A DNA stretch of 64,000 bases from an uncultured Planctomycetales bacterium. GTDB lineage: Bacteria; Omnitrophota; Gorgyraeia; Zapsychrales; Fredricksoniimonadaceae. Below are positions 4,063 to 64,000 of the stretch, piece by piece (within the stretch, counting starts at the first letter, position 1; every line of letters begins with the position of its first letter). The notes under the pieces are model-generated. The model saw nothing but the letters and a program-made list of their open reading frames with translations, made no database searches and had not been told where the DNA came from. The position numbers and the translations under genes were made by a program. The stretch is taken from assembly GCA_964583975.1 (NCBI GenBank), contig CAZOXU010000005.1:2034-66033 (forward strand). Reading direction: 5' to 3'.

Positions 4063-4065
4063 AAT

Positions 4066-4944
4066 TTAAAAAGCTAAGAAATAAATGACTGTAGTAACAA
4101 AGACAATCCACAGCACTATATTAATCATCAAGGGACGGTCCGATAAAAGTATTTCCGTAGGATCATCTCCTCCATGACGCATGTAAATCAAATACAAGTA
4201 ACGAAAAATACCATAAATAACAAAACCAACCGAATACAAAATATCGTATCTTCCGTGTAATCGGTTCAAAATATCAGGTGATATTGAGTATAAACTATAA
4301 AAGACTATAGCCAATGTAGAACAGATAACAATGATATGGTCCAAAAAATATGCCGAATAGTGATGCAACACTTCGCGGTGTTCAAAAGCATCTTTCTTTA
4401 AAGCAATTAATTCATACCTACGCTTTGTAAAACCAAGAAATAAAGCCAGTACCAACACACAGATTTGCAGCCATACCGATGGCAACACTCCAATAGCAAC
4501 AGAGCCTGCCCAAATACGAATTTGAAAGCCAAAACTAATGGTTAACACATCGAGAAGAACCAATTTCTTAGTTCTTAAATTATATAGAAACTGTAGCAAA
4601 ACGTAAGCAAACGCTAGAAACAAAACTTCTGTAGAAACAGCAAGACAAGCTAACAACCCACTGATCAGCAACGCCAAGGCTATAACAAGGGCAGGAACAA
4701 CCGCAATTCTGCCACTAGCTAGAGGTCTCTTGGATTTACGCGGATGAAGTCGATCTTGTCGTAGATCTAAATAGTCGTTGATAACATACATACTGCTGGT
4801 TACAAGACAAAATCCAGCCACTGTAGCAAGACACATTTTCCATAATGATAGATGCACGAAAAGCCCTGAGAAAATCAGAGGAAAGACTATAAAGATATTT
4901 TTGGTCCATTGTTTGACTCTTAAAAGCTCTATCAAGGTATGCAT
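4066..4944 (-). CDS. UbiA-family polyprenyl-phosphate transferase (decaprenyl-phosphate phosphoribosyltransferase-like)
   Basis: 292-aa protein with about 8 TM segments and motif NDYLDLRQDRLHPRKSKRPLASG, which fits the UbiA superfamily NDxxDxxxD plus a DRxHPxKxxRPxAxG-type signature. Confidence 0.75.
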   Translation of the reverse strand: MHTLIELLRVKQWTKNIFIVFPLIFSGLFVHLSLWKMCLATVAGFCLVTSSMYVINDYLDLRQDRLHPRKSKRPLASGRIAVVPALVIALALLISGLLACLAVSTEVLFLAFAYVLLQFLYNLRTKKLVLLDVLTISFGFQIRIWAGSVAIGVLPSVWLQICVLVLALFLGFTKRRYELIALKKDAFEHREVLHHYSAYFLDHIIVICSTLAIVFYSLYSISPDILNRLHGRYDILYSVGFVIYGIFRYLYLIYMRHGGDDPTEILLSDRPLMINIVLWIVFVTTVIYFLAF

Positions 4945-5015
4945 ATGGTTTAGTATAATTTCTTAACTCTTAAAAAACCATTGATTTTAGGGCAATTTTG
5001 ATATCTAATCCCAAC

Positions 5016-5597
5016 ATGCATCTTGCTATTTTTGATTTCGATGGAACCATTACTCACAAAGACAGTTTGTTTGATTTCATTGCTTACGCAGTAAAGCCAC
5101 CGGTCTACTACGCTGGGCTTTTTTGTTTAATCCCTGTTTTAATTGCTTATAAATTAAAAATATTAGCCAACAACAAAACTAAAGAAGCTGTCCTGAGCCA
5201 ATTCTTTAAGGATTGGGAATTACAACGGTTCGAATGTACGGCCAAAGCCTATAGTGACCGCATCCCTTCTATTGTTCGCAAAGCTGCTTTAGAAAGAATC
5301 CACTGGCATTTAAATCAAGGACATACCGTTGTCATTGCTAGCGCTTCTCTGGAGAATTATTTAAAAGACTGGTGCGCGAAATTACAGGTAGGATTAGTTG
5401 GCTCACACATAGAATTTATTAATGAAAAATGTACTGGCCGGCTCGTGGGAGCCAATTGCTATGGTCAGGAAAAAGTCCGCCGTCTTCAAGAAAAATATAA
5501 TCTAAAGAATTTTGATCGTATTTACGCTTATGGCGATTCTCCTTCCGATTACGCCCTTAAAAACATAGCCCATGAATTCTATTATAAATATTTTTGA
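5016..5597 (+). CDS. HAD-IB family hydrolase (phosphatase)
   Basis: The track ORF starts at a TTG at 4998. An internal ATG at 5016 gives MHLAIFDFDGTITHKDS with HAD motif I (DxDGT) at the extreme N-terminus, and a TAGTATAAT -10-like box lies upstream. Confidence 0.75.
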   Translation: MHLAIFDFDGTITHKDSLFDFIAYAVKPPVYYAGLFCLIPVLIAYKLKILANNKTKEAVLSQFFKDWELQRFECTAKAYSDRIPSIVRKAALERIHWHLNQGHTVVIASASLENYLKDWCAKLQVGLVGSHIEFINEKCTGRLVGANCYGQEKVRRLQEKYNLKNFDRIYAYGDSPSDYALKNIAHEFYYKYF

Positions 5598-5656
5598 AAT
5601 AAAGCCCCAAAATTACATATTCACAAAAAGATATGCTTTTGTTAGTATAAAATCCT

Positions 5657-7321
5657 ATGTTGAACCAGCTTAATATCAGCAATTTCGGACTCATCGACAA
5701 ACTTTCCATCGAATGGGTCGACCGACTTAATATCCTCACTGGTGAAACTGGTGCGGGAAAATCAATCCTCATTGATGCCTTACGTTCAGTGCTTGGAGAA
5801 CGTTTTGATACATCTTCTATCAGAGATCCCAAGCTTCCCTGCGTCATTGAAGCTGTTTTTGAACTCAATTCTTCTATTAAAAGCAATGAAATTTTCCAAG
5901 ACTTTCTAACTGATGGGGAATCCCAGTTAATTATTCAACGTACTATTACAGCGGATGGAAAAAACAAAATCAAAATTAATGGATTAAATGTGACCGTTGG
6001 CCAATTAAAAAGTATTGGCAATTATCTGGTTGATTTTCATGGACCTCATGATCACCAAATGCTTCTTTCAGAAGAAGAACATTTAAAAATGTTAGATAAG
6101 TTGATTGATTTTAAAACCCTCAAAAAAGACTACTCTAGCATCTATCAAAACTATATTGATCTCCAACATAAGCTTAAAACTCTCACCGAGCTCGCTCAAA
6201 CACGTCAACGCGACCTTGATTTGCTAAGTCATCAAGCCAAAGAATTAGAAACCGTCCCGTTAATTGAAGAAAAATACGAGCAAGTGTCTCAAGAAATTGT
6301 CAAAATTAATAACGCTCAGAAATTGTATGAACATATTCAGAACTTGCTTAACATTTTAGAAGATGAAGATGGTGGTGTTAATCAGCAACTTCGTAAAGCG
6401 TTTAATCCTCTTAGAAATCTTAATCAAATTGATGAAAAAACTACTCCTCTTTTAGACCAATTAAGCTCTATTCAAGAAAATACGAATGATCTGATCAGCC
6501 AGTTAAATGATTATGCCCAAAGCCTTAATTTTGATCAATCCGAAGCCCAAGAAATCAATAAACTTTACGATACCTATCAAGACATTCGACGTAAATATGG
6601 TCCTTCCCTGACCGAAGCGGCTGCCTTTTTTGCAGAAATAAAAGAGAAGCTCGAGCTTATTAAGAATTTCGAACACAATGATCATCAATTACGTCAAAAC
6701 ATTGCGGATCAAGAAAAAGAATTAACCAAGATTGCTAATAAAATCACTAAAGCCCGCCAGTTGGCAGCTGCTGATCTTAACAAAACCATTGAAAAAGAAC
6801 TTAAAGAACTAGGGATCAATCATGTCCGTTTTGAAGTGCGTTTTGAAAAAACAGACTTTGGACCTAATGGCAATGATCATGTCGTCTTTTATATCAGCCC
6901 TAATGCGGGTGAAGATTTAAAACCATTAGCTCAAATTGTTTCTTCTGGAGAAGCTGCTCGGGTCATGCTGGCTCTTAAAAAAGCTTTAATTAAGGTAGAT
7001 CCGATTCCTGTACTGATCTTTGATGAAATTGATGCTCAGATTGGCGGCCGACTAGGGACCGTGACTGGTAAGAAGTTGACTGAACTTGCTCGACACAGAC
7101 AGGTCATTTTAATCACCCATCTCCCTCAAATCGCCTCTTTTGCTGATAGGCATTTTAAAGTCGTCAAGTCAGTCAAATCATCCAGGGCGACTACTCAAAT
7201 CAACCTCCTGGAGAATAAAGCTAGGGTTGAAGAAATCGCCCAAATGATGAGCGGCCATGACACTAATCGTATTTCTCTAGAGCATGCCCAAGACATGCTT
7301 CTATCTGCTCAAAAAGCTTAA
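5657..7321 (+). CDS. recN: DNA repair protein RecN
   Basis: 554 aa. The N-terminus MLNQLNISNFGLIDKLSIEWVDRLNILTGETGAGKSILIDAL carries Walker A, the middle is a long coiled-coil, and the C-terminus has the SMC-like signature and Walker B (LIFDEIDAQIGG). This is the canonical RecN architecture. Confidence 0.9.
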   Translation: MLNQLNISNFGLIDKLSIEWVDRLNILTGETGAGKSILIDALRSVLGERFDTSSIRDPKLPCVIEAVFELNSSIKSNEIFQDFLTDGESQLIIQRTITADGKNKIKINGLNVTVGQLKSIGNYLVDFHGPHDHQMLLSEEEHLKMLDKLIDFKTLKKDYSSIYQNYIDLQHKLKTLTELAQTRQRDLDLLSHQAKELETVPLIEEKYEQVSQEIVKINNAQKLYEHIQNLLNILEDEDGGVNQQLRKAFNPLRNLNQIDEKTTPLLDQLSSIQENTNDLISQLNDYAQSLNFDQSEAQEINKLYDTYQDIRRKYGPSLTEAAAFFAEIKEKLELIKNFEHNDHQLRQNIADQEKELTKIANKITKARQLAAADLNKTIEKELKELGINHVRFEVRFEKTDFGPNGNDHVVFYISPNAGEDLKPLAQIVSSGEAARVMLALKKALIKVDPIPVLIFDEIDAQIGGRLGTVTGKKLTELARHRQVILITHLPQIASFADRHFKVVKSVKSSRATTQINLLENKARVEEIAQMMSGHDTNRISLEHAQDMLLSAQKA

Positions 7322-7404
7322 CTACATTGATTTATACCCTAGTTTATGGTATTTTACTGCCTTCCATTTGTTATTAACCTCATTAATAAGCAAGGAGTTT
7401 TTTA

Positions 7405-8610
7405 ATGAAACGCATTGGTATTATCACTTCAGGCGGAGATTGTGGCGGTCTTAATGGTGTTATTAAAGGTGCAGCTTCTATGGCTCGCGCTCATGGTGTC
7501 GCTTCTTTCGTCATTCCCAACGGCTATGCCGGTCTTTACAATTTAATTAATTTTGATCATTTAACCGAATTAACTCAAGAACGTTTAGATAAAATCAATA
7601 CGAACCTAGCTGGTTCGGAAGCTGGCCACTCTAGAGTTAACATCAAAAAGATCGATGATCCTAATAAATATCAACAGATCAAAAAAGGTATGGAGAAATT
7701 CAAACTCGATGGCCTTATTATCTCTGGCGGTGATGATTCGGGCAGTGTTATGGTGGATTTAATTGAGCATGGTATTAAATGTGTCCACGCACCTAAAACC
7801 ATGGATTTGGATCTGCAAACCTATTCCGTAGGCGCTGACTCAACCATCAATCGCATTGCAACTTTCCTGGAAGACTTAAAAACTACAGCAGCAACCCATA
7901 ACCGTATCTTGGTCATGGAAGTATTTGGACGCTATGCTGGACACACTGCCTTTCGTGGTGGCGTGGCTGCAGATATTGATGCCATTATCATCCCTGAAAT
8001 CCCCTGCGATTTCGATATTCTCTATAAACATATGAAAGAACGTTATTTTAAACGTATTAAAGAAGATGATGTGCATGCTGGAACCTACATGATTGTGGTT
8101 GCTGAAGGTATTAAGGATGCTTCTGGAGCTGATATTGTAGATGAAAATGCACCTGTGGATGCTTTTGGACACAAACGTTTGGCTGGTGCGGGAAATTATG
8201 TCTGCCAACAGCTGACCAAACGCCTCAAAGCTGATAAAGAGATCACCGCCCTCATGCAATCGTCTAACATGTATGTTAAAGGAATCAATGAGATCCCCGA
8301 AGTACGTGCTGTCACCCCTGGCCATTTAGTACGCTGTGGTCACTCTAGCGCTTATGATGTTAACTTTGGTAAAGAAGTTGGGGCTGGCGCCTTTATTCTT
8401 CTGAATCAAGGCATTACAGGCGTAACTGTTGCTGGTATTAACGAGGGCACGGTTCGCTATATGGATACCAAGGAAGCCATCCAACAACGCTTTGTAGATG
8501 TCAATCAAGTCGCTATTTATGAAGCTATGGGAATGTGTTTTGGACGTATAGCCCCAAAGGCTCAAACCAAGACTGAAAAACTCAGTGGTAAAACTGAACG
8601 ACATTTCTAA
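7405..8610 (+). CDS. pfp: 6-phosphofructokinase, probably PPi-dependent
   Basis: MKRIGIITSGGDCGGLNGVIKGA is the PFK N-terminus. The ISGGDDSGS motif has Asp where ATP-dependent PFKs have GGDGS, and the GGDDS variant is characteristic of PPi-dependent enzymes. A good SD (aaggag) sits upstream. Confidence 0.8.
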   Translation: MKRIGIITSGGDCGGLNGVIKGAASMARAHGVASFVIPNGYAGLYNLINFDHLTELTQERLDKINTNLAGSEAGHSRVNIKKIDDPNKYQQIKKGMEKFKLDGLIISGGDDSGSVMVDLIEHGIKCVHAPKTMDLDLQTYSVGADSTINRIATFLEDLKTTAATHNRILVMEVFGRYAGHTAFRGGVAADIDAIIIPEIPCDFDILYKHMKERYFKRIKEDDVHAGTYMIVVAEGIKDASGADIVDENAPVDAFGHKRLAGAGNYVCQQLTKRLKADKEITALMQSSNMYVKGINEIPEVRAVTPGHLVRCGHSSAYDVNFGKEVGAGAFILLNQGITGVTVAGINEGTVRYMDTKEAIQQRFVDVNQVAIYEAMGMCFGRIAPKAQTKTEKLSGKTERHF

Positions 8611-9317
8611 TTCTTAGAACAGACTGTAATTAAGGATTGTCCCCACATAGGTTTAAGTATGGTTTCTATTTTCTCAAAAATAGGAACCATACGATCTAAT
8701 TGCCCCGCAGATCTATGGTCAAATGATTGGTATTTTAAAATACGACCCGCTACAAACCAAGAAACGATCCCAAATAAATTCATATAAAACTGATGTTGGA
8801 TCATAAAACCACTGGCTTCTAAAATAGAATTTAATCTTGTCTTTGTGTAGCGTCGATGATGCCCTACCAACCTATCTAGTGTTCCATAAATACTAGGTAT
8901 AGCTGGAACCATTAAGACCACCCTTCCATGGGGTTTTAATAATCGACGAATATTGTCTAGCGCTTCCTGCTCATTCTCGATATGTTCCAACACATTAATA
9001 CAAGTGACACAGTCACCAAAACTGTATAGTTTCTGAGGGATTGTTTGTCGGTCGGCAATATCCATAGGAACAATACGGTAAAAAGGATCTGTGCCGAATC
9101 TTTCTCTTAAGGGGATAAGAGTCTCTTTGTGACTATCTGTTAAGACCACCTGGGCAATAGTTTTATGCTCTTTGTAATATTTGGTTATATCCCCTATCCC
9201 GCTACCCACATCCACTACCGCACCAGATAAATAAGGTTGAATATTACGAAAAATCCAAGAATTATAATTATGGAAGGCGCTAATGATGTTTAAAGCTTTT
9301 AAAAGATCCGTAGCCAT
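8607..9317 (-). CDS. Class I SAM-dependent methyltransferase
   Basis: 236 aa with motif I VVDVGSGIGD. Its stop and start are tightly packed with both neighbours. Confidence 0.7.
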   Translation of the reverse strand: MATDLLKALNIISAFHNYNSWIFRNIQPYLSGAVVDVGSGIGDITKYYKEHKTIAQVVLTDSHKETLIPLRERFGTDPFYRIVPMDIADRQTIPQKLYSFGDCVTCINVLEHIENEQEALDNIRRLLKPHGRVVLMVPAIPSIYGTLDRLVGHHRRYTKTRLNSILEASGFMIQHQFYMNLFGIVSWFVAGRILKYQSFDHRSAGQLDRMVPIFEKIETILKPMWGQSLITVCSKN

Positions 9318-10159
9318 TAGGGAAACAATCTGGGTATTTGTTCGATGATATCACTGGCAATTAAAGAAGTTTTTGATCCTTGTCGAACGGCTAAATCCCC
9401 TGCCTTGCCATGGTCGTAAACACCCCACCGAGCTGCTTCGAAAGCTTCTATTCCCTGCGCCAAGAACGCAGCAATCATTCCTGTTAGAACATCACCGCTT
9501 CCTGCGGTGGCCATACCGACATTCCCGGTTGGATTGATGATAATTTTAGAAGGCGCTGCAATGATCGTATGGTGTCCTTTAAGGACAAGCACACAATGAT
9601 ACTGATGCGTAAATTCCCGAGCCACTGTCTTACGGTTTTCTTCAATATATTTAGCACTCTTGCCTATAAGTCGAGACATTTCTCCAACATGAGGAGTTAA
9701 TATCCGTGGCCCTTTAGCTTTAGCTAAACACCTGAGATTGGCAGCCAAGGTATTTAAGGCATCGGCATCAATGACCATCGGGCCAGGATAATGTTCTACT
9801 ATCTTATAAACAAAAGCACAGGTACTATGATTTAGCCCTAACCCAGGACCAAGAGCTATAGCATTAAATTTCGAATAGATTCTTTTTAAAACATCAAAAG
9901 CTTTAAGAGAAATGGTCCCCTGAGTCGTCTCTGGCAAGCTTACAGTCATTACAACATTAGAGATTTTCTTTTGTAGGGTAAGATTAAGGCTTCGAGCCAC
10001 GCCAGCACTCACCATGCCTGCCCCGCAACGCATTGCAGATAAAGAACACAAGGCTGCAGCACCGAGCATATTGGGTGAACCAGCTATGACCAAAACATGG
10101 CCAAAGTCTTTTTTATTTAAACGAGGATTACGGCGTGACAATACAGAAGGCCGTGGCAT
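9317..10159 (-). CDS. nnrD: NAD(P)H-hydrate dehydratase (YjeF C-terminal carbohydrate-kinase domain)
   Basis: 280 aa with HVLVIAGSPNMLGAAALC and GSGDVLTGMIAAFLAQG, the typical YjeF-C motifs. Confidence 0.8.
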   Translation of the reverse strand: MPRPSVLSRRNPRLNKKDFGHVLVIAGSPNMLGAAALCSLSAMRCGAGMVSAGVARSLNLTLQKKISNVVMTVSLPETTQGTISLKAFDVLKRIYSKFNAIALGPGLGLNHSTCAFVYKIVEHYPGPMVIDADALNTLAANLRCLAKAKGPRILTPHVGEMSRLIGKSAKYIEENRKTVAREFTHQYHCVLVLKGHHTIIAAPSKIIINPTGNVGMATAGSGDVLTGMIAAFLAQGIEAFEAARWGVYDHGKAGDLAVRQGSKTSLIASDIIEQIPRLFP

Positions 10160-10475
10160 AGTCTTTAGAATGGGAAATGGAAATTAAAATTTGATTTTTA
10201 AAACTCTTGAGTCGGTGTCGGCAAACTGGTTTGCCATGTTTGTCATTTACAATACTCACATCCTGAAATGACAATTTAGGATCACCCACTGCTTTAAAAA
10301 TAGCCTCTTTGGCAGCAAAGCGCCCTGCGTAATGGGCAAACGGATAACGATAACGCTTGGCATTGAGAATCTCTTCGCGGGTCAGAATGTGCTTTAAGAA
10401 ATCTTCACCCCAACGCTCAACCGCTTTTTTAATGCGATCAATTTCAACAATATCCGTACCAATGCCTAGAATCAT
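10128..10475 (-). CDS. acpS: Holo-[acyl-carrier-protein] synthase
   Basis: 115 aa starting MILGIGTDIVEIDRIKKA, the canonical AcpS N-terminus. It overlaps both pdxJ and nnrD. Confidence 0.85.
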   Translation of the reverse strand: MILGIGTDIVEIDRIKKAVERWGEDFLKHILTREEILNAKRYRYPFAHYAGRFAAKEAIFKAVGDPKLSFQDVSIVNDKHGKPVCRHRLKSFKNQILISISHSKDYATAFCIVTP

Positions 10476-36326: not shown

Positions 36327-37070
36327 CTATTTGTGAGCTTTGAAAATAGGATCTTCTAGAACTTCACGGATGATGGCAATTGAGGCATCCAAGGTGCTTT
36401 GCCCTGGCTTAACTCCCCAATCGGTAACATCTTTACCATATACTTCTAAATCTTCTAATAATTTGCTGCGTTGCTTTTCCGTGATGGCTAAAAGCTTACC
36501 TTTATCATTTGCATTATCTTGACTTAAAAGAACCTTGGTCATCAACGCTGAGGCCTTAATAACAGACTTATCTATTTCCTTACGTTGAAGCTCCAATTGA
36601 CGCAAGGAGTTACTAAACTCCTTCTCTTCAGCTACTTTAGGTTTTGCCTTAGTTTTATATTCCAGCCAATTCTGCCACAGATCTTTAGCTTTATCATTTA
36701 AGACTATTTCCTTATCACAAGCAATGATCACTAAATCAGACACTTTCCGCATCAATTGATTGGAAGATGTTAAATATTTATTCAGATAACCTTTAATAAT
36801 TCTCAGATTAGCATTATCTAAAACATAGTATTCGATATTACCTCGAATCATCTTTAATTCATCTTTGGGGAACTTTTTCTTAGGGGGATTTTGACTCCAT
36901 CGATTCTCAATGGTTCGAAAATAACTGAGAGCCGAAATATAACTGCGGGCAAATTCATACTTATTACCATCAGGATTGTTCTTTTTAAATTCATTCTCTG
37001 CAGCCAAAACATTGGAAGCACCAATGAATATTAAAAATCCAATAAGAACATTCAAAATGATTTTATTCAT
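36327..37070 (-). CDS. Small secreted protein of unknown function, abutting the giant gene
   Basis: The track ORF starts at 37106. The internal start MNKIILNVLIGFLIFIGASNVLA at 37070 is a classic signal peptide. The rest is Lys/Glu-rich and alpha-helical. The gene sits between the giant gene's stop at 37107 and the addA-like start at 36320. Confidence 0.5.
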   Translation of the reverse strand: MNKIILNVLIGFLIFIGASNVLAAENEFKKNNPDGNKYEFARSYISALSYFRTIENRWSQNPPKKKFPKDELKMIRGNIEYYVLDNANLRIIKGYLNKYLTSSNQLMRKVSDLVIIACDKEIVLNDKAKDLWQNWLEYKTKAKPKVAEEKEFSNSLRQLELQRKEIDKSVIKASALMTKVLLSQDNANDKGKLLAITEKQRSKLLEDLEVYGKDVTDWGVKPGQSTLDASIAIIREVLEDPIFKAHK

Positions 37071-37106
37071 GTGTGCTATTGTAACGTCCACAAAGGTCTT
37101 GGGCAA

Positions 37107-40100
37107 TTAAATCTTTGCTAATGCTTGCGCTTCTTTACTGATTCCAAGTAATGGAAATGGGCTTAGGATGGGTGCGATATCGATAATGACAGGTGAAAAA
37201 CCTTGAAACTCTCCTTGAAGCAATTCATCGAGTTGGGCTGGATCAAAATCAACCTTAATCGTCTTGCCAGTACGATTAATATTAATTTGATTTAAATCAA
37301 TACCACCTAGATCTTGTGATTTATTAGATCGGTTAAGCATTGCTTGATCATTTCCTTCATATAGTTGAGATTCTTCGCCATAACGAATACCCCTTAAAGC
37401 ATCTTCATACATTTGCTTACGTCTTAACCATTCTAAAGCCCCACTTGCTCGATTATGAGCTTCAACTAAATCCATTTCGGGCGTTGATTTACTTAAGAAC
37501 ATAATATCAATCAACTCTTTAGCCTTGATTACCTCATTAGAATTAAATGATTGCAAAAACCAAACAAGCGCCTTGACCAACATTTCTTCCCTAATATTGT
37601 GAGCCACCCTACGTTCATTTAAATCATCTATTGTCAAACTTTTCGAATTACCAATAAGATCCCGTGCAAACATTATGGTATCTGCCATTTGAGCTATCTC
37701 CCTAGCAGTTGCTTTGGAAGGCAATAACGACTTAGCTACTTCAAAATCCGAGACATCATTAGAAGACATCGCCCTGTCATCCCCCATTGCACTATTAAGC
37801 TTATTAAATACTTTTTGCGCTTTAATATAGGCAATATTAATAGCTGTATAAATATCATTGTTAGATCTCCTATATCCATAAATCAAATAAATAATTTCTA
37901 TGGCCTTTAAAACTTCATCATTAATCTTTGAATCCAAAAACCTAAGAAGAGCTTTTACTAAATAAGTTTCATTTGTATCATAAACTTCTAATTTAGATTC
38001 TATGTCTTTCACGGATATAATTTGATCTTTAGAGTCTACCCATTCTCGGGCAAGTCTTAAGGCATTTCCAAACCTGTAAATATTCTGTGGATTATTTTCT
38101 AGAGGTAAAAAATCTTTAGCATAATCATAAAAAGCACCTAATGCATCATTCAAAGAGGGAATCTGGCCCAATTTCTTAATACGCAATGATTTAGTATCCC
38201 AAGGAACTATTTTCGAAGGCTCCCCCTCAACAGAAGAATCAATAGCTCTAGAAGCTTTCTGGTACATTGACCTTAATAATGCACTGCGCTCATCTTTCTT
38301 TGTTTCTAAATAAATGCCATAAATTAAAGATATGGCTCGTGATTTTTCATCATCATTTCCAAATCTTAAAAACCAATCCAAAGCAATGATTAACAAATTA
38401 CGATCAAACTTTGAAGCTTTAATATCTGAATCTATTTCTTCAATTGAAAAGTTTTTTTGTTCTCTAATATATCTGTGCGCCAGATTTAAAGCGTCTCCTA
38501 ATTGAGTTAATGGTATCTCTTTATACTTGTTATCTTGCTCTTGGATCTTTTGAGCTAACTCATAACCATTGAAAACTGTTGGAGATGTTGAATCTGATTT
38601 AGAATTCATAGCTTGATCTGCAGGCACGGTGGGCTCGCTGTCCCATATACGAATTGTTTCATCAACCTTACTCTGATCAATCCATCGATCCCACTTGCAG
38701 CTCATAAGCGCTTGGCGAATGGCCCCATCTCGATCTAATGGTTTTAATCTTAAAACATATTCTTGAATAATCAAACGAGCTTGTTCTCGTACTCGATTAA
38801 TTCTTTCATTTTGAGGATTCATGGAAGCAATCAAATAGGGTACCGATCTTTCTAACTCCACAACTGACATTGTTTTTAAACTCAACATGCGAACATGGTC
38901 ATTTTGCTCAACACCATTAAATCCATGATTATTTCTTTCATCCATATAGGCATGTTGTTCCAACAATTTCCAAAATTCTCCTTTATCAAGCAAGTCTTGT
39001 CGCAATGATAATATTAACAATGCCCCTTGTCGGGCTTTCGAATAATCTCTTCCTGTCGTAGATAGTATTTCTAACAAAGCTTGAACATTCAAATCCCTAT
39101 TCACTAAAGCTCTTGCCTTGTCTCTAATATTATTATTAGCATATTCATCAGGAAATTCTTGTGCCAGCTCTTTAGCTTCCGATGATAAAGCACCCTCTTT
39201 TATAATATCCTTAGCAACTCCTTTGTCTATACCTGCACCTGACTTCCCATCCCACAAACCTATAAATCTTCGAATCCTATCTTTATCAATTTTAAAATCA
39301 TCTACTAGCGCGCTACCAAACGCACTTCTAAAACGTCCCTGCCTATCTAATTCTCTAATTTCTGCAATATATTGAATGGCTATATCTATAACTACATTTC
39401 TCACCTCTACTGACAACTCACTCTTCCAATAAAATGATTCAACCAAATAAGGAATTGCTCTACGTAAATCTAAAGCGGCCATGGTTCTTAAACTTTGAAC
39501 CCTTACAAAATTATTTCGTTCAATGCCTTTAATCCTCATTGAATTATATTGATTTTCATACGCATGTTGCACCAAGTAAGGCCAAAGATCATCCTTTTTG
39601 ATTAAATCTTTACGTAATGTAAAAATAAACAAAACTGCTTCTCGAGCCGGAGCATATTTTCGATCTGTCGTTGCTAAAACCTCCAACAATACCTTTAACT
39701 CTAGCGTTCCTTGCACAATCTCCCGCGCCTTACTATAAATTTGCTCTCCTTTCCAATGACTTAGAAACTCATCGGCAAATGCTTGCGCTTCTAGTGACAA
39801 GACTGGCTTGGAATCTGGCTGGGAAGTCATAGCATGATCTGAAACATCTGGCATTGTTGCAGAAATATTAGCCCATCGATTTACTAATTCTAAGACCCTA
39901 TCTTTATCTATCCATTGATCATATTTATAGGACAATCTTAATTGTTTCAATAATTCACCTTCTGAATCTAATCTTATTATCCAATTAAGCTTACCAGATA
40001 TAATTCTCAATATTCTTGCACGAACATCTACTATTCTTTCATTTCTAGGGTTTAATGAATGAATTAAATACGGAATTGACCTTTTTAAATCCAGCTCAGC

Positions 40101-42170
40101 CATTGTTCTTATACTTTGTAATCGAACATAATTATTCTGTTCAATACCTGGAATTCTTTTATCATTTGTATCATCACGATAGGCATGTTCTTCAAGCAAT
40201 GGCCACAAGATTTTATTCGGAATTAAATTCTTTCGAATAGATAAAATGATTAAAACCGCCTGTCTAGCCCTAGAACATCTTGCTGTTCTTGTTGCTAAAA
40301 CTTCCAACAAAAGATCTTTCTCATAATACCTTTGAGATATATCTTGTGCCTTTTTAATAACATCTTGGACTAAAAAGCTTACTGGAAACTCCTCTACAAA
40401 TTTTCTAGCTCCTTCAGATAAATAATCATCTTCGTTTAACTGGGAAGTCATGGCGGAATCTTGTGATAGTTCTTGAGCAATTTGGAGAATTCGAGGTAAA
40501 TTTCGTTCTAATTTAAGTTGAATTTCTAAGACTTTCTCGGCCATTTCTTGAGTAAAACCACCATCAATTATAAATTTAGCCGCATCCCAAAGATTCACTA
40601 ATCCAGCATTATTATCTTCTAATTTAGGTCTATTTGGCATTCGTTGAATAATTTTATGCGCCCAATCTAATAAATTTCTTAATTTAGAATAATTACTAAA
40701 CTGATCTAAAACATTTCTTAATGTTTCTGCACCTTGATCTATATTAACTTTTTTATCTGTAATTTCTGAAATCTGAAGAAAAGCCAATTCAAAGCTTACA
40801 ATTGGTTCAATAATTAAATGATTAATCCCTGTAGAATTTAAATTAGCTTTTGATTGTAAATAGCCAAACAAGCCCTTGTGATAGACGTCTTTTATTTCTT
40901 CTATTAATTTCACACCCTCTTTCTGTAAATTATCTCTCTTTGCTTTAGAAATCATTGCTACATCTGTTGCAAAATTATTTACTAATTTCACCTGCAAAGA
41001 CATCATCGCCCCATCTGCTTTAATATCAGCCTGTCTTCCATTTCTTTCTACAGGAATCTTCATCAACGTCAGTCCACCAGAGAAATACTTCCGTGGTCCT
41101 GCTGATGCTGCACCAGATCCAACGTCAGTTGGATCTGGGTCCTTAATGTAATTAAACACACCCTTTTTATAGGCTTGCAGATAGCGCTCGTATATCTGTT
41201 GTTTTATCGCAGGGTCGTTAAGATTAACACCTGCCACCTTGTTCTTATTGGTATACACTGCATCTAAAAGACCATTTTGAATGGTTTCCTTGTACCATTT
41301 AGCTAAGATCAATGCATCGTAGATTTGACGAAGTGGGGCAAAGTTCTTTCCCTGATTGACTTCTTTGGTGATTTCGGGAATGACAATCTCACGGATGATT
41401 TGGCTTCCGATTTGATTGGATTCGCGTACGGGCGGGGTTTCCTCGCCCTTATTAGGGCTGGGTGACCCAGCCCGTACATTATTCTTTGACATCGCCAAAT
41501 AATCCTCATCCAACATGACCTTCAAGGTTGATTTGGTCACGTAGGCCGCTGGTGGAACATTTCCGCCAGAGGCGGATCGACCTGCGGCCGACTCATACAC
41601 CTGCGCTTGATCTGGTAGAATCCATACCTTGTTAAAAGTATTGACTGGAACATCCGTGGTGCCAAATTGCTCTTGGGCTTTTTTGTAGACTCTACTCCAA
41701 AACTCCTTGCCTAAATCCTTCTCTGGGTAAATCAGCGAGGCAGTCAATTGCTTAAGGATATAGTCTTGGGCTAATAGATCACGACCTAGCTCGGTTTCAC
41801 CTAAAGACTGGGTAGTCATGCGGTCTTTTTCATAAGGTGAAAGATTGACCCATAAATCACCTTCTGGGATGGTTAGGCCAGCTAAGAAGTACTTCACTAA
41901 TCTTTCTGCCTCTTCTTGATTAGGGCTGCTAGCTGCCCCTACCGAGCCAGTGTCTACGATAAATTGAAATTCCAGAGGTTTCTGGGGATTAACAATAATA
42001 CCTTTTAAAGCTAGGGGTGTAAAAGCTGCTGATGGCCCTACCATGACTCCTGGCTCGGGCAGCTGTAGTAGGGGCACGGCATGCCGTGCTCCTACATCCG
42101 CATAGGAATACTGTAAGTTGCTGCAAATAAATGACATGCAGACTATAGAAGAAATCAAACGTTTGAACAT
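37107..42170 (-). CDS. Giant secreted modular protein (1687 aa): signal peptide, conserved N-terminal module, 3 x ~200-aa HEAT-like tandem repeats, further helical modules, conserved C-terminal ~75-aa module
   Basis: The signal peptide is MFKRLISSIVCMSFICSNLQYSYA. The N-terminal 365 aa and the last 75 aa are clearly homologous to the partial ORF at 60607..64000. Three internal repeats share ATTxRxYxxARxAxLxIxxLRxxLxxxxxWxxLxxHAYxxxxNxxxIxGxExNxxVRxQSxRTMAxLDLxRxIPYL. Confidence 0.85.
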   Translation of the reverse strand: MFKRLISSIVCMSFICSNLQYSYADVGARHAVPLLQLPEPGVMVGPSAAFTPLALKGIIVNPQKPLEFQFIVDTGSVGAASSPNQEEAERLVKYFLAGLTIPEGDLWVNLSPYEKDRMTTQSLGETELGRDLLAQDYILKQLTASLIYPEKDLGKEFWSRVYKKAQEQFGTTDVPVNTFNKVWILPDQAQVYESAAGRSASGGNVPPAAYVTKSTLKVMLDEDYLAMSKNNVRAGSPSPNKGEETPPVRESNQIGSQIIREIVIPEITKEVNQGKNFAPLRQIYDALILAKWYKETIQNGLLDAVYTNKNKVAGVNLNDPAIKQQIYERYLQAYKKGVFNYIKDPDPTDVGSGAASAGPRKYFSGGLTLMKIPVERNGRQADIKADGAMMSLQVKLVNNFATDVAMISKAKRDNLQKEGVKLIEEIKDVYHKGLFGYLQSKANLNSTGINHLIIEPIVSFELAFLQISEITDKKVNIDQGAETLRNVLDQFSNYSKLRNLLDWAHKIIQRMPNRPKLEDNNAGLVNLWDAAKFIIDGGFTQEMAEKVLEIQLKLERNLPRILQIAQELSQDSAMTSQLNEDDYLSEGARKFVEEFPVSFLVQDVIKKAQDISQRYYEKDLLLEVLATRTARCSRARQAVLIILSIRKNLIPNKILWPLLEEHAYRDDTNDKRIPGIEQNNYVRLQSIRTMAELDLKRSIPYLIHSLNPRNERIVDVRARILRIISGKLNWIIRLDSEGELLKQLRLSYKYDQWIDKDRVLELVNRWANISATMPDVSDHAMTSQPDSKPVLSLEAQAFADEFLSHWKGEQIYSKAREIVQGTLELKVLLEVLATTDRKYAPAREAVLFIFTLRKDLIKKDDLWPYLVQHAYENQYNSMRIKGIERNNFVRVQSLRTMAALDLRRAIPYLVESFYWKSELSVEVRNVVIDIAIQYIAEIRELDRQGRFRSAFGSALVDDFKIDKDRIRRFIGLWDGKSGAGIDKGVAKDIIKEGALSSEAKELAQEFPDEYANNNIRDKARALVNRDLNVQALLEILSTTGRDYSKARQGALLILSLRQDLLDKGEFWKLLEQHAYMDERNNHGFNGVEQNDHVRMLSLKTMSVVELERSVPYLIASMNPQNERINRVREQARLIIQEYVLRLKPLDRDGAIRQALMSCKWDRWIDQSKVDETIRIWDSEPTVPADQAMNSKSDSTSPTVFNGYELAQKIQEQDNKYKEIPLTQLGDALNLAHRYIREQKNFSIEEIDSDIKASKFDRNLLIIALDWFLRFGNDDEKSRAISLIYGIYLETKKDERSALLRSMYQKASRAIDSSVEGEPSKIVPWDTKSLRIKKLGQIPSLNDALGAFYDYAKDFLPLENNPQNIYRFGNALRLAREWVDSKDQIISVKDIESKLEVYDTNETYLVKALLRFLDSKINDEVLKAIEIIYLIYGYRRSNNDIYTAINIAYIKAQKVFNKLNSAMGDDRAMSSNDVSDFEVAKSLLPSKATAREIAQMADTIMFARDLIGNSKSLTIDDLNERRVAHNIREEMLVKALVWFLQSFNSNEVIKAKELIDIMFLSKSTPEMDLVEAHNRASGALEWLRRKQMYEDALRGIRYGEESQLYEGNDQAMLNRSNKSQDLGGIDLNQININRTGKTIKVDFDPAQLDELLQGEFQGFSPVIIDIAPILSPFPLLGISKEAQALAKI
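38600..40450 (-). repeat. Three divergent tandem coding repeats (~600 nt / ~200 aa each) inside the giant gene
   Basis: Protein-level alignment of three consecutive segments beginning ...FVEEFPVSFLVQDVIKKAQ, ...FADEFLSHWKGEQIYSKAR and ...LAQEFPDEYANNNIRDKAR; each continues with LLEVLATxxRxYxxAR...HAY...NER...W(I/D)xKDR. DNA-level identity is low, so the duplication is old. Coordinates are approximate. Confidence 0.6.
41424..41478. repeat. GC-rich nested palindromic mini-element embedded in-frame in the giant ORF
   Basis: gtacgggcggggtttcctcgcccttattagggctgggtgacccagcccgtac. The outer arms gtacgggc/gcccgtac are perfect. The inner hairpin gggctgggtgacccagccc is nearly identical to an intergenic copy at 59262-59284. 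It encodes the low-complexity linker AGSPSPNKGEETPPVRE. Confidence 0.55.
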
Positions 42171-59289: not shown

Positions 59290-59856
59290 TCACGCTCTCC
59301 ACTTGATTGAACAACCCATCGAAGGCTTTTGCTGAGCATCAATAGGCCGACCTGCCGCCATATTGTTCATAGCTTCTTTAAGCTCTTCACGCGTGACCTT
59401 TGCTTCTTCTTTCCAATTATCATCGATACGGCCATGATAAACCAATTTACCTTCTTTATTAAAAAGATAGATATCCGGTGTGCACTGAGCTTTAAAGGCA
59501 TCCGCGGTCTTTTGCGTCTCATCAACTAAATAAGGAAATTCAATACCCAACTCTTTGATTTTCACGATCATTTTATCAGGAGCATCATCAGGAAAATCTG
59601 GATTGATATTAGGATTAATGGCAACGGTATTAACTCTCATCCCTAAGCCATACTTGGCTAGCGCAATGACACGCGGCCACACGGCAATGGCATAAGGACA
59701 GTGATTGCAAGTGAATACCACCAATAGTCCTCTTTCACCAAAAAGCTCTTTTCCTTTATAAGCCCTGCCAAATGGATCTTGAAGTTCAAAATCTGGCATC
59801 GATGTGCCCAAAGGAATTTTGATAGACTCTAATAAAGCCATTTGATTACCTCCCAA
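59290..59856 (-). CDS. Thioredoxin-fold redoxin (TlpA/AhpC-TSA-like thiol-disulfide oxidoreductase)
   Basis: 188 aa. LVVFTCNHCPYA supplies the CxxC in thioredoxin-fold context. Confidence 0.7.
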   Translation of the reverse strand: MGGNQMALLESIKIPLGTSMPDFELQDPFGRAYKGKELFGERGLLVVFTCNHCPYAIAVWPRVIALAKYGLGMRVNTVAINPNINPDFPDDAPDKMIVKIKELGIEFPYLVDETQKTADAFKAQCTPDIYLFNKEGKLVYHGRIDDNWKEEAKVTREELKEAMNNMAAGRPIDAQQKPSMGCSIKWRA

Positions 59857-59968
59857 TTGTAATGTAATATCTGTTTGTCATTCCCGAATGTTTTTATCGG
59901 GAATCTAGTACCTGGATCCCCGATAAAAACATTCGAGGAAGACCCTCATTATAAAAGGATGCATACCT

Positions 59969-60610
59969 ATGTCAAGCAAGTCTCTCGTCATTAAACAATA
60001 CGAAATCGGTCCTTTAAATAATTTTCTCTACCTTTTAGGAGATCCAGCTACCAAGGAAATGGCCGTGGTCGATCCAGCTTGGGATGCCACCTTCTTATGC
60101 CGTGAAGCCCAAAATATGGGTTATAAAATCACCAAAGTCTTTTTAACCCATGCGCATCCTGATCACGTCAATGGCCTTGATGAACTTTTACGACAACACG
60201 ATGTGCCCGTTTACATATCCCGACACGAAGCCGCTTTCTTACGCAAAAACCTCAAGAATCTCGTAGATGTGTCTGATAAAGAGAAACTCACTCTAGGCCA
60301 AATATCTTTTGATTGTATTCATACACCAGGACACACTCCAGGCTGCCAATGTTTCCTATCTCAAGGACAGCTTATTTCTGGAGATACTCTCTTTATTGAT
60401 GGATGTGGTCGATGCGATCTGCCTGGCGGGGATGCTAGAATCATGTATAACAGTCTTAATATTATTAAAAAGCTTCCTGATGACATAATTGTCTGGCCTG
60501 GTCACAACTACGGCCCCACCGTTACAGACACCATTGGTCATCAAAAACTTACCAATCCCTACTTACAGGCTTCTAGCATTGAAGAATTTTTGGGCGAACG
60601 AATGGGCTAA
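59969..60610 (+). CDS. MBL-fold metallo-hydrolase (glyoxalase II-like)
   Basis: 213 aa. HAHPDHVNG is the HxHxDH motif, and the downstream His/Asp ligands are GDTLFIDGCGRCDLPGG and HNYG. Confidence 0.85.
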   Translation: MSSKSLVIKQYEIGPLNNFLYLLGDPATKEMAVVDPAWDATFLCREAQNMGYKITKVFLTHAHPDHVNGLDELLRQHDVPVYISRHEAAFLRKNLKNLVDVSDKEKLTLGQISFDCIHTPGHTPGCQCFLSQGQLISGDTLFIDGCGRCDLPGGDARIMYNSLNIIKKLPDDIIVWPGHNYGPTVTDTIGHQKLTNPYLQASSIEEFLGERMG

Positions 60611-63600
60611 ACTTTAGCAGTAGATTCTTGCAATTGTGAGAACATTGGCAGGCTTACAGCAGGTTTGATATCAATAATAATAGGCACCAGACCTTCGATG
60701 TGAATGTTTTCTAAATCTTGCTGACTAATAGGCAATGGCACGCCTGCCCCATCACGCTTAATCTGTAAATTCAAATTCGCTGCGTTAAAATCAATACCAC
60801 CCTTATTAAAATTCTGATCAGCCACCCTCATAGCACCATCTGGATTCTGATTTGTATTTTGATTATATCTACTAACCGCCTCTGCAATATTAGAAGGAAT
60901 TTGCTGACCATCTATTGGATATAATTTATTACTTTTTACAAAATAAAATACCGATTGAGGTCCTTTGTCCGGATTGTCAATTCTACCTAAATTAAAAATC
61001 ATTCCCTCTTCTGAAAGATAATCAAGCCGTATATATTTTCCAGATATTCTTGACAAATTCATTAAATCAAAAATTTGACGATGATTATAGTTAATAACTT
61101 TTTGTGAATCTTGCTCCACATGACGCATAACAATAAAAACATTCTTTGTCACATCTTGAAGTCGAAAGGTTATATTTAAAGTATTATCTTTATTTTTTAG
61201 AGCCCACAACTGAATAAGAAACCGACTCATCTGGGCAAGCCCTTCAATTCTTGTTTCAATTACAACCTTTGAATCTTTTTTAGTAAAACCAATTGTACTA
61301 ATATCACCTATTGCAATCTCTCCTAATTCTTTTAGGTTCGAATCTAATAATACCAATTGTCCTTTTGCATTAGTATGAAGACCCAATGTGAATGTACCAA
61401 TTCTTAAGATAATCGGATCATTTTGATATAAAACTGTAGCAGCTCCGCCCATATCCCCATCATCTCGAATTGCTATAGAATGATATTGCGTGTACTGCAG
61501 ACCATGTTCAACAGATTGAAGCTTTTCAAATTCATTTAGTATTTCTTCATATTTCCTTGTTTCCTCAATGGCGCGCTCATTTGCCCCTCCAAAAACGCTC
61601 CAAACCTTAATTCGAGCTCTTAACACATCAAAATTTCTAACATCCTCAGCTTGAATATCTAGCTGATTATCGGGAATCTCTCGTGTTAAGTATTGCACGT
61701 CATCCCTAGCAACAGATAACAATAAACGTACGGCTCGGATTAATTTATCTTTCGATGCTAAATCATCTTTATTGCTTATAACCCTCTTATTTAATCCTTT
61801 AACAAATGACATTATCTTTATTTCCCAATTTTCCCGCGTCTCTCCACCGTTCATAGCAGAATCAGCGTTTGATGCCGGCTCCACTGGAATAGACCCACTC
61901 GTTGAAGCTATCTCAGACATACTTTTTTCTAAATAGTTACTAAGAGCATCGGTGAATAATTTAACATTACTAGGTGTCAGTAGACTAACACTAATTCCCT
62001 TTTTATCAGAACTAACCCTTGCAATAGGAACTCCAAACCAGAGAAACTGATCATTTTCAAATTTTAATTCTGAATTCAACTGAGCAAGCATATTTATTTG
62101 ATAGTTATCATATAAATATGCATATACAAAATGAGCTATTGAGGCCATAAACTCTTCTGGAGTATTTAACTGGCGCTCTATTTCTTCTAGAAGAGCATCT
62201 GTAACTTTACCCTCAAAGTCTTTTTTATTTGAATCGCGTAAATCTTCTATTGCCTGTCTCATCGCTTTAGCTGTTTCACCACTCGACATTGCTGCATCAC
62301 CTCTTAAATATGCATCTATTCTATCTCTTACATTTAATAAATCTGCTTTGATAGACACCCTTGTAATTCCAGATGCCTCAAAATTATTCATAGCTCGTAA
62401 TTGGCTAACCAAAACTATCTCCCTATTTTTCAACCTAAGCAATTCATTAGCTAAAGTAACTTGAAAAACATTGGAATCAATCTCGCTTATCATTTTCTGT
62501 AACTCTTCATCTTCTTGAAGAAAATCACGAAATCTTTTCTTAAACGTTCCTGCTTGTGGCCCAACGTCAGAGAACATAGATAATATTTGCATTGAATATT
62601 CATCCAAAAGTTTTCTGGTTAAAACCGGATATTCTTTTAATTTCCTAACAATTTCTTGGAAAGATTCTAGCTTATCTTTGGAAATATACATCTTCACGTA
62701 ATCTTTAGCGACCAACTCATTCAATAGAACATCAATTGCACCTCTATTTTTATTTACCCAAATACGCACCTGTTTAGGCAAAGATTTTACTTCTAAATTA
62801 GATGACAAATTATCTAGCCTACTCACTGCTGTTGCCATTGCCATGTCACTGAAGAACACTCTAGTCAAATAATCTGCCAATGCATTAGCAAATTCTTCTT
62901 TACTATAATCTTCCACCTTAACCAACCCTACATTAATACTAGCCACACGAATTCCTAAAAATCTAATGACATCTCTCTCTATTTTTATATTTTCAGGTTT
63001 AAATTTAAAAAAACCTAAATCTAACGTATTTAATAAGAATGTATTAATTCTTTCAGCAAACTTTTTTTGGAAATCATCTGAGTCAATAAAATCTCCTTTA
63101 TACAAAATGAGCCTTAAACTCCCTATAGAACTTTTCATAGAATCTTCCATCTGACGTAAGGACTGAACGGCTTCCAATACTTGACTCTTTACTTTCTCAT
63201 TCCATACAAATCCAACATCCTTATCAGAGACATAATAAGCACCACCATCTCTTAGTAAGATCAATTTATCATCTTCCTCTCTAACTAATTCGATATTATC
63301 AAACTCAATGGAAATCGTATCAAGAATATTACTAGCCTTAATAAAGCTATCCCTCACCTGCAAATCTTGAGCACTAGCAAAAATCTTTGTATTTAAACCT
63401 TTCAATATAACCCTATTCTTTTTATTCTCTAACTCTACTTTGCTACCTAAGTTTGGAATCTTAACGCTATAGATACCTTCTTCTTCAAGAACCAACTTAT
63501 CATTCGCTCTAACAACCATCGCCGCATCAGCCTCAGACTTCTCTGCCAATACAGCTTCAGCAGCATCTAGCTTTCCTGCCTCGGTGATCATAATAGGTCT

Positions 63601-64000
63601 TGCCATGGCAGAATCTGTTGTTGTGCGCATTGCTTTTCCGTATTCATTCTTGGTCCCACCCGAAAAATACTTCCTTGGCATTGGCTGATGCGTGAATTTA
63701 TCGGTGTCTTCTTTAATATAGTTAAATACACCCTTCTTATAAGCTTTGAGGTATTGCTGATAGATCGCTTCGTTGTTCTTTGGGTCTTGGTTAATTCCAT
63801 TAACCTTGGCTTTATCTGCATAAATCTTCCCTAATAAAGATTCTTTCAAAGCACGTTTATACCAGGCTGCTAAAATCATTCCGCTATACACCTGACGAAG
63901 CATGGCAAAATTCTTGCCTTCATTGACTTCTTTTTCAAGGGCTGGAAGAACGATTTCACGGACGATTTGGGAGCCGATTTGATTGGTTTCCGTAGGGGCA
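60607..64000 (-). CDS. Paralogue of the giant secreted modular protein, partial (N-terminus beyond window end)
   Basis: The minus-strand ORF stays open from 64000 down to the stop at 60607; the track's Met at 63903 is internal. The residues read ...TETNQIGSQIVREIVLPALEKEVNEGKNFAM-LRQVYSGMILAAWYKR...KYFSGG. These align to ...NQIGSQIIREIVIPEITKEVNQGKNFAPLRQIYDALILAKWYKE...KYFSGG of the 1687-aa protein. The last ~75 aa also align (GGIDFN...PIIIDIKP against GGIDLN...PVIIDIAP). Confidence 0.8.
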   Translation of the reverse strand, partial: APTETNQIGSQIVREIVLPALEKEVNEGKNFAMLRQVYSGMILAAWYKRALKESLLGKIYADKAKVNGINQDPKNNEAIYQQYLKAYKKGVFNYIKEDTDKFTHQPMPRKYFSGGTKNEYGKAMRTTTDSAMARPIMITEAGKLDAAEAVLAEKSEADAAMVVRANDKLVLEEEGIYSVKIPNLGSKVELENKKNRVILKGLNTKIFASAQDLQVRDSFIKASNILDTISIEFDNIELVREEDDKLILLRDGGAYYVSDKDVGFVWNEKVKSQVLEAVQSLRQMEDSMKSSIGSLRLILYKGDFIDSDDFQKKFAERINTFLLNTLDLGFFKFKPENIKIERDVIRFLGIRVASINVGLVKVEDYSKEEFANALADYLTRVFFSDMAMATAVSRLDNLSSNLEVKSLPKQVRIWVNKNRGAIDVLLNELVAKDYVKMYISKDKLESFQEIVRKLKEYPVLTRKLLDEYSMQILSMFSDVGPQAGTFKKRFRDFLQEDEELQKMISEIDSNVFQVTLANELLRLKNREIVLVSQLRAMNNFEASGITRVSIKADLLNVRDRIDAYLRGDAAMSSGETAKAMRQAIEDLRDSNKKDFEGKVTDALLEEIERQLNTPEEFMASIAHFVYAYLYDNYQINMLAQLNSELKFENDQFLWFGVPIARVSSDKKGISVSLLTPSNVKLFTDALSNYLEKSMSEIASTSGSIPVEPASNADSAMNGGETRENWEIKIMSFVKGLNKRVISNKDDLASKDKLIRAVRLLLSVARDDVQYLTREIPDNQLDIQAEDVRNFDVLRARIKVWSVFGGANERAIEETRKYEEILNEFEKLQSVEHGLQYTQYHSIAIRDDGDMGGAATVLYQNDPIILRIGTFTLGLHTNAKGQLVLLDSNLKELGEIAIGDISTIGFTKKDSKVVIETRIEGLAQMSRFLIQLWALKNKDNTLNITFRLQDVTKNVFIVMRHVEQDSQKVINYNHRQIFDLMNLSRISGKYIRLDYLSEEGMIFNLGRIDNPDKGPQSVFYFVKSNKLYPIDGQQIPSNIAEAVSRYNQNTNQNPDGAMRVADQNFNKGGIDFNAANLNLQIKRDGAGVPLPISQQDLENIHIEGLVPIIIDIKPAVSLPMFSQLQESTAKV

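Follow-up and report, generated by a model that had tools for sequence, protein, structure and literature searches.

Two large proteins encoded on the same strand of a 64,000-nucleotide stretch of contig CAZOXU010000005.1 (assembly GCA_964583975.1), which as a whole is called the window here, end in a similar C-terminal segment, and the question raised by this locus is what such a tail is for. A preliminary description of the window saw in it a candidate secretion or anchoring signal carried by two giant proteins, named P1 and P2 in this work, whose upstream parts were thought to be unrelated. Translation confirmed that both open reading frames (ORFs) end as then quoted, P1 in ...DLGGIDLNQININRTGKTIKVDFDPAQLDELLQGEFQGFSPVIIDIAPILSPFPLLGISKEAQALAKI and P2 (60607-63903, listed as an ORF of 1098 amino acids, aa) in ...KGGIDFNAANLNLQIKRDGAGVPLPISQQDLENIHIEGLVPIIIDIKPAVSLPMFSQLQESTAKV, each quoted segment comprising the last 77 codons plus the stop codon; with sizes of 1687 and >1130 aa, the two proteins are large, not giant. 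As far as sequences allow us to judge, this tail marks the constant C-terminus of a protein family that is undescribed and has been seen in Omnitrophota only; the two ends of these proteins are inherited and diverge jointly around a centre that is replaced. The tail is probably an element for handling or docking that is specific to this family, and not a general sorting tag. The family is defined by a signal-peptide-like leader, an N-terminal domain (N-domain) ending in PRKYFSGG and a GGID tail lying no more than about 100 aa from the stop codon; P1 has all three, whereas of P2, whose 5′ end falls outside the window, the tail and the final third of the N-domain are visible.

Constant ends of a protein family

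The tail follows the pattern GGID[FL]N…P[VI]I[IL]xIxP over about 55-65 aa, starting with an invariant GG, and its conserved core, obtained from 30 metagenomic fragments with a two-sequence profile, reads GGIDFNxANLNLQIKRDGxGVPLPISQQDLENIxIDGLVPVILDIKPA. A hidden Markov model (HMM) search among 1.84 billion cluster representatives retrieved 4,475 proteins with E<=1e-3, of which 1,751 reached E<=1e-10, and established the tail as a real and widespread C-terminal module that is not restricted to P1 (E 1.4e-18) and P2 (E 1e-37). The match lay at the very C-terminus in 150 of the 150 matches listed, in proteins of up to 2,070 aa, and ended a median of 3 and a maximum of 24 residues from the last residue in 181 carriers. 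Among species-representative genomes, 38 tail loci were found, with a single tail per ORF located 55-95 aa before the stop codon; the complete ORFs at these loci span 730-2,560 aa, save for one remnant of 266 aa (L028), and family members as a whole range from about 500 to 2,600 aa. Several genomes hold three or four tail loci each, and a tandem paralogue stands beside 8 of the 38. The invariant positions are kept across 29 to 88 sequences. Direct comparison of the two window tails gave 33% identity (BLASTP, E 1e-4), the one of P1 belonging to a rarer subtype in which four hairpin residues are absent. Neither the tail nor the N-domain matched any entry in Pfam, NCBIfam or PDB sequences, and sorting-signal HMMs of NCBIfam and Pfam gave no match with 29 tails at E<=10, so that the earlier statement that the tail matches none of the classical sorting domains holds. 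A phage origin was also considered and rejected: no relative was found on viral contigs, and the sole PHROG match, that of the tail, reached E 0.037.

Conservation is not confined to the C-terminus, as had been thought, since P1 and P2 have in common an N-domain of ~330 aa. Residues 280-366 of P1 share 51% identity with the start of P2 (BLASTP, E 7e-22), in an alignment that ends at PRKYFSGG and is stronger than the one between the tails. This likeness was overlooked because most of the P2 N-domain lies outside the window. Moreover, the ATG listed for P2 at 63903 is internal, the frame remaining open upstream to base 63999, from which 1130 residues are visible, and reading ...QIGSQIVREIVLPALEKEVNEGKNFAMLRQVY... 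there. The N-domain is in fact better conserved than the tail. The first 400 residues of P1 matched 23 genomic tail carriers with E values from 1e-85 to 1e-156 (phmmer), and a search with the N-domain gave 1,285 homologues. No Pfam domain was found on this region among the matches listed, and neither an invariant His or Cys nor a classic catalytic triad is present. Against a profile built from 58 full-length family members, P1 scored E 9.7e-190 and P2 E 2.4e-111; no other protein of the window carries either constant end.

The two ends go together. Both were present in 81 proteins examined, and every long tail carrier of the protein set that lacks the N-domain is a fragment cut N-terminally. 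Among the intact carriers examined none was without the N-domain, save for the remnant ORF L028. Three loci had been candidates for such a carrier and were discarded: L028 for being this remnant, L008 for the masked bases in its sequence, and L020 for having an N-domain ORF in the same frame that ends one stop codon upstream. In the latter locus (3134-10231), a single stop codon splits the N-domain ORF from the tail ORF, a split that could reflect pseudogenization, an error in sequencing or a stop codon that is read through or recoded. Identity between N-domains and identity between tails are correlated (r=0.78 for 92 members; none of 999 permutations of a Mantel test reached this value), and a distinct tail subtype, that of P1, pairs with a distinct N-domain subtype.

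In 136 of the 140 members with a complete N-terminus, our own three-part pattern heuristic detected a leader in which a basic start precedes a hydrophobic core and an A-x-A-like site (...PAYAQ in the typical case), in line with the idea that carriers bear signal peptides. P1 opens with a signal-peptide-like leader of the Sec type that has the same basic beginning and hydrophobic core, with S-Y-A as its site; behind it come the constant N-domain, the variable centre and the constant tail. Several short relatives (P0170, P0172, P0174, P0175 and P0275) show a second signal-peptide-, Tat- or lipobox-like hydrophobic stretch right after the N-domain (...LMTGLFAC in P0275), which gives the impression that entire pre-proteins were captured between the two ends. 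For the P1 subtype, phmmer also reported a local match between the segment following PRKYFSGG and the GG hairpin of the tail; the notion that one is a duplicate of the other, by which the centre would be an insertion with a repeat on either side, was dropped after a profile-profile comparison (172 against 218 sequences) gave a probability of 0.3%.

Regarding its taxonomic range, all named tail carriers belong to Candidatus Omnitrophota, and the 38 genome loci come without exception from metagenome-assembled genomes assigned to this phylum or labelled 'uncultured Planctomycetales'. The latter label applies to 13 loci (L002, L003, L005, L008, L009, L011, L015, L020, L025, L027 and L034-L036), in five of which (L009, L011, L020, L027 and L036) neighbour genes share 62-100% identity with those at loci labelled Omnitrophota; L009 is in addition syntenic with L016 and L021. 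The label is probably an artefact of naming or taxonomy mapping. Similarly, all named N-domain homologues are from Omnitrophica or Omnitrophota but one, a partial protein labelled Pacearchaeota that has probably been mis-binned. Omnitrophota, which occur widely and are for the most part uncultured, are often ultra-small and are suspected of being predators or parasites. P1 itself had no exact match on record in public assemblies, and no paper with the tail motif was found in the literature searched; both constant ends, as well as the linker motif described below, are new, and the family is undescribed.

Variable centres and the D-x-A-M motif

What lies between the two ends differs from member to member. 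In 4,138 of the 4,186 pairs formed by 92 members the centres are unrelated, meaning that there is little or no BLAST similarity and that any match at E 1e-3 covers <10% of the shorter centre. The centre of P1 contains three repeats of ~200 aa (residues 576-782, 783-982 and 995-1189) that are 39-40% identical, and three of ~110 aa (1203-1311, 1348-1431 and 1476-1580) that are 26-27% identical, its sole Pfam signal being a sub-threshold HEAT_2 in the longer repeats. P1 aligns with its closest genomic relative, L002, over no more than the N-domain (63%) and the tail (49%), and the P1 centre has no similarity to the centres of either L002 or L001, its closest relatives. A further case is offered by P2 and the L037 gene of Omnitrophota nDJH6bin18, which are positional homologues (window 59290-60801 and L037 2756-4934): the MBL-fold hydrolase and the peroxiredoxin encoded downstream share 75% and 84% identity and keep the same orientation, and the DNA of the region is 70% identical over 1,279 nt. 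Of the two proteins only the 61-aa tail aligns (67%), the ~900 residues upstream being without detectable similarity, which points to a centre replaced at a fixed locus, as judged from this synteny. Across the family, centres hold HEAT, ankyrin, HPr, NUDIX and HAD domains, response-regulator receivers (5 of 45), and also low-molecular-weight (LMW) phosphatase, HATPase_c and PP-binding domains; most centres have no Pfam domain.

These centres are made up of one to several modules of domain size, often set apart by a short motif, D-x-A-M, which is found seven times in P1 and six times in P2 in comparison with 0.18 and 0.15 expected occurrences (about 40-fold enriched), and 385 times family-wide against 21 expected. 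Centres contain 3.3 copies of it per 1000 aa, compared with 0.03 for N-domains and 0.13 for the remaining 45 window ORFs, and the median distance between copies is 145 aa. The copies of P1 (residues 386, 403, 571, 778, 1185, 1465 and 1608) coincide with repeat boundaries, and the last one, D-Q-A-M, is placed 10 residues upstream of the GGID of the tail. A D-x-A-M occurs <=40 aa upstream of GGID in 77 of 188 tail carriers (41%) and <=80 residues downstream of 53% of N-domains. The codons for D and A show the same synonymous diversity as the background, and therefore selection acts on the peptide and not on the DNA. Internal start sites were considered and discarded on account of this background-like codon diversity and of finding no Shine-Dalgarno-like sequence upstream. 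Such a distribution marks D-x-A-M as a linker motif, which may serve either for processing or for docking.

Positions in the window and neighbouring genes

The coordinates of P1, P2 and their parts are collected in Table 1.

Table 1. Features of P1 and P2 in the window (positions from the first letter of the stretch).
Feature	Position	Strand	Basis
P1, complete family member, 1687 aa	37107..42170	(-)	ORF translation and family profile match
P1 leader, residues 1-24, MFKRLISSIVCMSFICSNLQYSYA	42099..42170	(-)	read from sequence
P1 constant N-domain, residues 36-366, LPEPG to PRKYFSGG	41073..42065	(-)	phmmer against genomic tail carriers
P1 variable centre, residues 367-1607	37350..41072	(-)	repeat and motif analysis
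P1 repeat region, residues 576-1607	37350-40445	(-)	internal repeat comparison
P1 last linker motif, D-Q-A-M, residues 1608-1611	37338..37349	(-)	motif scan
P1 span of D-x-A-M motifs	37338-41015	(-)	
P1 constant tail, residues 1622-1687, GGIDLNQININRTGKTIKVDFDPAQLDELLQGEFQGFSPVIIDIAPILSPFPLLG..., GGID to last codon	37110..37307	(-)	tail HMM
P2, second family member, 5′ end cut by window	60607..64000	(-)	frame and family profile
P2 N-domain, C-terminal third, to PRKYFSGG	63655..63999	(-)	51% identity to P1 residues 280-366
P2 five further D-x-A-M motifs	63604-63615, 63517-63528, 62836-62847, 62287-62298, 61852-61863	(-)	
P2 last linker motif, D-G-A-M, 9 residues upstream of GGID	60829..60840	(-)	motif scan
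P2 span of D-x-A-M motifs	60829-63615	(-)	
P2 constant tail, common subtype, GGIDFNAANLNLQIKRDGAGVPLPISQQDLENIHIEGLVPIIIDIKPA..., GGID to last codon	60610..60801	(-)	tail HMM

The window genes around P1 and P2 are of a housekeeping nature according to Pfam (an AddAB-like helicase-nuclease, a pyrophosphatase, an MBL hydrolase and a peroxiredoxin), and the tandem family pair of L039 is found among genes of pyrimidine synthesis. When flanking ORFs of the 38 loci and the window were clustered, only tandem paralogues and lineage-specific synteny recurred. No gene of the dedicated secretion or sortase-like system that could have been expected beside the carriers recurred in this set, where no recurrent small downstream ORF was found either, and none of the core genes of the type IX secretion system (T9SS; PorK/L/M/N, SprA, PorU/V) was seen within the 64-kb window and the 20-kb loci. 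Next to P1 there is an ORF of 259 aa (36327-37106, minus strand) with a transmembrane- or signal-like N-terminus and no Pfam match, whose TTG start adjoins the P1 stop codon, and which for this reason may be co-transcribed with P1; it is not recurrent beside family members at other loci.

Predicted structure, possible roles and comparison with known systems

AlphaFold2 (AF2) prediction of P0172, the closest short relative (649 aa, alignment of 58 sequences), gave a moderately confident alpha/beta N-domain with long helices (predicted local distance difference test, pLDDT, about 60-93), left the centre unmodelled and assigned the tail, which does not extend the sheet of the N-domain, a pLDDT of 60-75. 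The tail of P1 modelled alone (88 sequences) reached a pLDDT of 83-88 over residues 41-80 with a predicted template modelling score (pTM) of only 0.29, and contained one helix (AQLDELLQG) and no strands. A Foldseek search of this tail model against PDB gave 0 matches, so that the check once suggested brought out no structural homology. Because of the low pTM, the single helix and the lack of Foldseek matches, the tail looks in these predictions like an extended stretch unable to fold without a partner, and not like an autonomous domain. The modelled N-domain of P0172 (residues about 45-320) yielded only non-significant fold matches (E 0.16-0.5, TM-score <0.15), mostly with alpha pore-forming toxins of the ClyA family (SmhA, MakA, MakB, MakE and NheA). 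Judging from its composition, the tail also has no anchor made of a transmembrane segment plus basic residues: no 19-aa window of the P2 tail has a Kyte-Doolittle mean >=1.6, the single such window of P1 (1.62) is proline-rich and contains Asp, and a hydrophobic segment of transmembrane grade was flagged in 4 of 58 members. In addition, the C-termini of the family are variable and not basic, P1 and P2 ending in I or V after variable residues.

Altogether, the explanation that we favour as a whole, and which we believe about as much as we doubt it, is that of a two-ended family handle on exported proteins that swap their payloads. A family protein would be exported by Sec through its leader, and the two constant ends together would then act as a family-specific handle that steers it to its final place, whether it is kept in the cell envelope or passed on to another secretion step. 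In such a scheme, the tail would dock as an extended peptide, made of a short hairpin, a single helix and a strand flanked by prolines, that folds only on a partner, and would be neither a membrane anchor nor an enzyme nor a free-standing sorting tag; cutting at the D-x-A-M just upstream might later release the tail, and likewise each of the modules. The tail may have a role in targeting or anchoring after Sec, as part of a two-ended scaffold specific to the family and not as a general sorting signal. Several points weigh against this two-ended handle. Common descent alone could produce the co-variation of the ends, and the calling of signal peptides depends on the pattern heuristic described above. 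The lower pLDDT of the tail in the full-length model than alone leaves docking onto its own N-domain unsupported. No partner gene came up at the 38 loci or in the window, where the sole recurrent neighbours are tandem paralogues. Finally, normally cytoplasmic domains such as those found in the centres are unusual for proteins retained in the envelope, and may speak instead for delivery into another cell.

Other explanations share part of this evidence. A general signal for C-terminal sorting or anchoring, of the T9SS, PEP-CTERM or LPXTG type, that is read by a dedicated machinery and then removed or used for covalent attachment, would fit a module that is always C-terminal, opens with an invariant GG and is carried by thousands of proteins with signal-peptide-like leaders in one phylum. 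The C-terminal position given in the original proposal stands, as do the leaders that it suggested looking for, whereas its portability does not, no intact carrier other than the L028 remnant having been seen without the N-domain. The absence of profile matches among the 29 tails, of a motif followed by a transmembrane helix and a basic cluster, of a predicted beta-sandwich or any other compact fold and of a recurrent secretion or sortase gene nearby completes the case on which the sorting-tag reading fails, and we regard it as decidedly unlikely. A direct pairing of the tail with the N-domain, either as an intramolecular loop that displays the centre or as head-to-tail chains or a surface layer in the manner of flagellin, would account for ends that co-occur in all but one remnant ORF, that co-vary strongly with matching subtypes in the P1 type, and for a tail that looks like a fold-on-binding segment. 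We still find it unlikely, given the modest pLDDT of the tail and the unextended sheet in the full-length model, a co-variation that shared descent can yield as well, and members bearing enzymes or receivers, which are unlike structural subunits.

A further view is that these are polyproteins cut at D-x-A-M, with the tail as a C-terminal pro-region (an intramolecular chaperone, an inhibitor or an element of export competence) that is removed at the D-x-A-M ahead of it and plays no role in the mature products. The motif is 18- to 40-fold enriched, confined to centres with the spacing of domains, under selection at the protein level and often located 1-25 residues before GGID, and cutting by peptidases has been proposed for the giant proteins of Omnitrophota (10.1101/2023.11.21.568195). 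However, no protease was identified, the N-domain lacks an invariant His or Cys and a classic catalytic triad, and only 41% of the tails have the motif close upstream, which makes this a very unlikely account. As for chance resemblance, low complexity or an assembly artefact, the weak pairwise similarity of the two tails could by itself have raised such a suspicion, which is ruled out for practical purposes by the 1,751 clusters with strong profile matches, the invariant positions and the occurrence in 38 independent genome assemblies. A bolder idea is that of a phylum-wide scaffold by which predatory or parasitic Omnitrophota deliver effectors, in which the N-domain, whose only fold matches are the non-significant ones with ClyA-family toxins, would be a membrane-active translocator, the tail would be required for hand-over to the secretion or translocation step, and D-x-A-M would be processed to release the payloads (receiver, HPr, NUDIX, HAD, phosphatase, ankyrin, HEAT) inside the host or prey. 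We consider it quite doubtful; if true, it would represent a new logic of secretion and delivery with freely exchangeable internal payloads. In any case, thousands of members with two undescribed ends, a new linker motif and swappable signalling or enzyme payloads behind a signal peptide make the family a strong candidate for the main exported toolkit of Omnitrophota, and the HMMs of the N-domain and the tail provide simple markers for cataloguing the payload repertoire across genomes.

How does this family compare with known systems? The C-terminal domains of the T9SS are autonomous beta-sandwiches found on unrelated cargo in Bacteroidota. Like the Omnitrophota tail, these domains (Por_Secre_tail, TIGR04183) are C-terminal modules of ~60-100 aa on Sec-exported and often large multi-domain proteins, restricted to a lineage and with many carriers per genome. 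Unlike them, the Omnitrophota tail has no match to Por_Secre_tail or to the type-B domain (29 tails at E<=10, and whole P1 and P2), would lack strands or a compact fold according to the predictions, and is accompanied by one and the same N-domain in all intact carriers seen. Sortase-type signals (LPXTG, PEP-CTERM, GlyGly-CTERM and PGF-CTERM) differ in their triad of motif, transmembrane segment and basic residues, which the tail does not have, nor does it match any NCBIfam or TIGRFAM model of this kind. In type I secretion, RTX proteins have no N-terminal signal peptide, carry nonapeptide repeats of the GGxGxD type and are encoded next to genes for an ABC transporter and a membrane-fusion protein; the family departs from them in its leaders, in having no RTX match in Pfam and in having neither of these two genes as neighbours. 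Neither do the beta-barrels of autotransporters and YadA_anchor resemble the tail, for which there is no Pfam match or predicted strand and which ends in P1 and P2 with a non-aromatic residue. The beta-helix of TpsA proteins (Haemagg_act) has likewise no counterpart in the N-domain, which is without Pfam match and is modelled by AF2 as a mixed alpha/beta domain with long helices.

Closer parallels are found in systems that keep a constant part and vary another. In polymorphic toxins it is the C-terminal toxin domain that varies, with the cognate immunity gene coming after it. These toxins (CdiA with VENN, Rhs with DPxGL, MafB) resemble the Omnitrophota family in a constant trafficking region joined to non-homologous payloads that are swapped among close relatives or at syntenic loci, and in a short peptide motif at the boundaries, D-x-A-M in our case. 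On the other hand, the variable part of the Omnitrophota proteins is internal and bracketed by the constant tail, no recurrent small gene occupies the downstream position of an immunity gene, no toxin domain was detected, and there is no Pfam match to TPS, Rhs or PT-domain families. Flagellin, with its D0/D1 ends, and the Msp2/P44 proteins of Anaplasma also combine conserved, co-evolving ends with a hypervariable or replaced centre, although they show no similarity in sequence or fold to the Omnitrophota family, whose centres are whole unrelated domains (enzymes, receivers, repeat arrays) and not a variable loop or domain of one fold. Finally, the same phylum encodes the giant proteins known as Archaeovorins and others, of 10,000 to 147,000 aa, with C39 or S8 peptidase and SecA-like domains (10.1101/2023.11.21.568195, 10.64898/2026.06.07.730766). 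Neither of these two papers describes the N-domain, the GGID tail or D-x-A-M. The giant proteins are similar to the present family in their N-terminal signal peptide or transmembrane segment and in stringing together normally cytoplasmic domains (HEAT_2, HATPase_c, NUDIX, HAD and receiver), and it is this resemblance between their domain repertoire and that of the centres that keeps alive the reading of the family as a scaffold for effector delivery.

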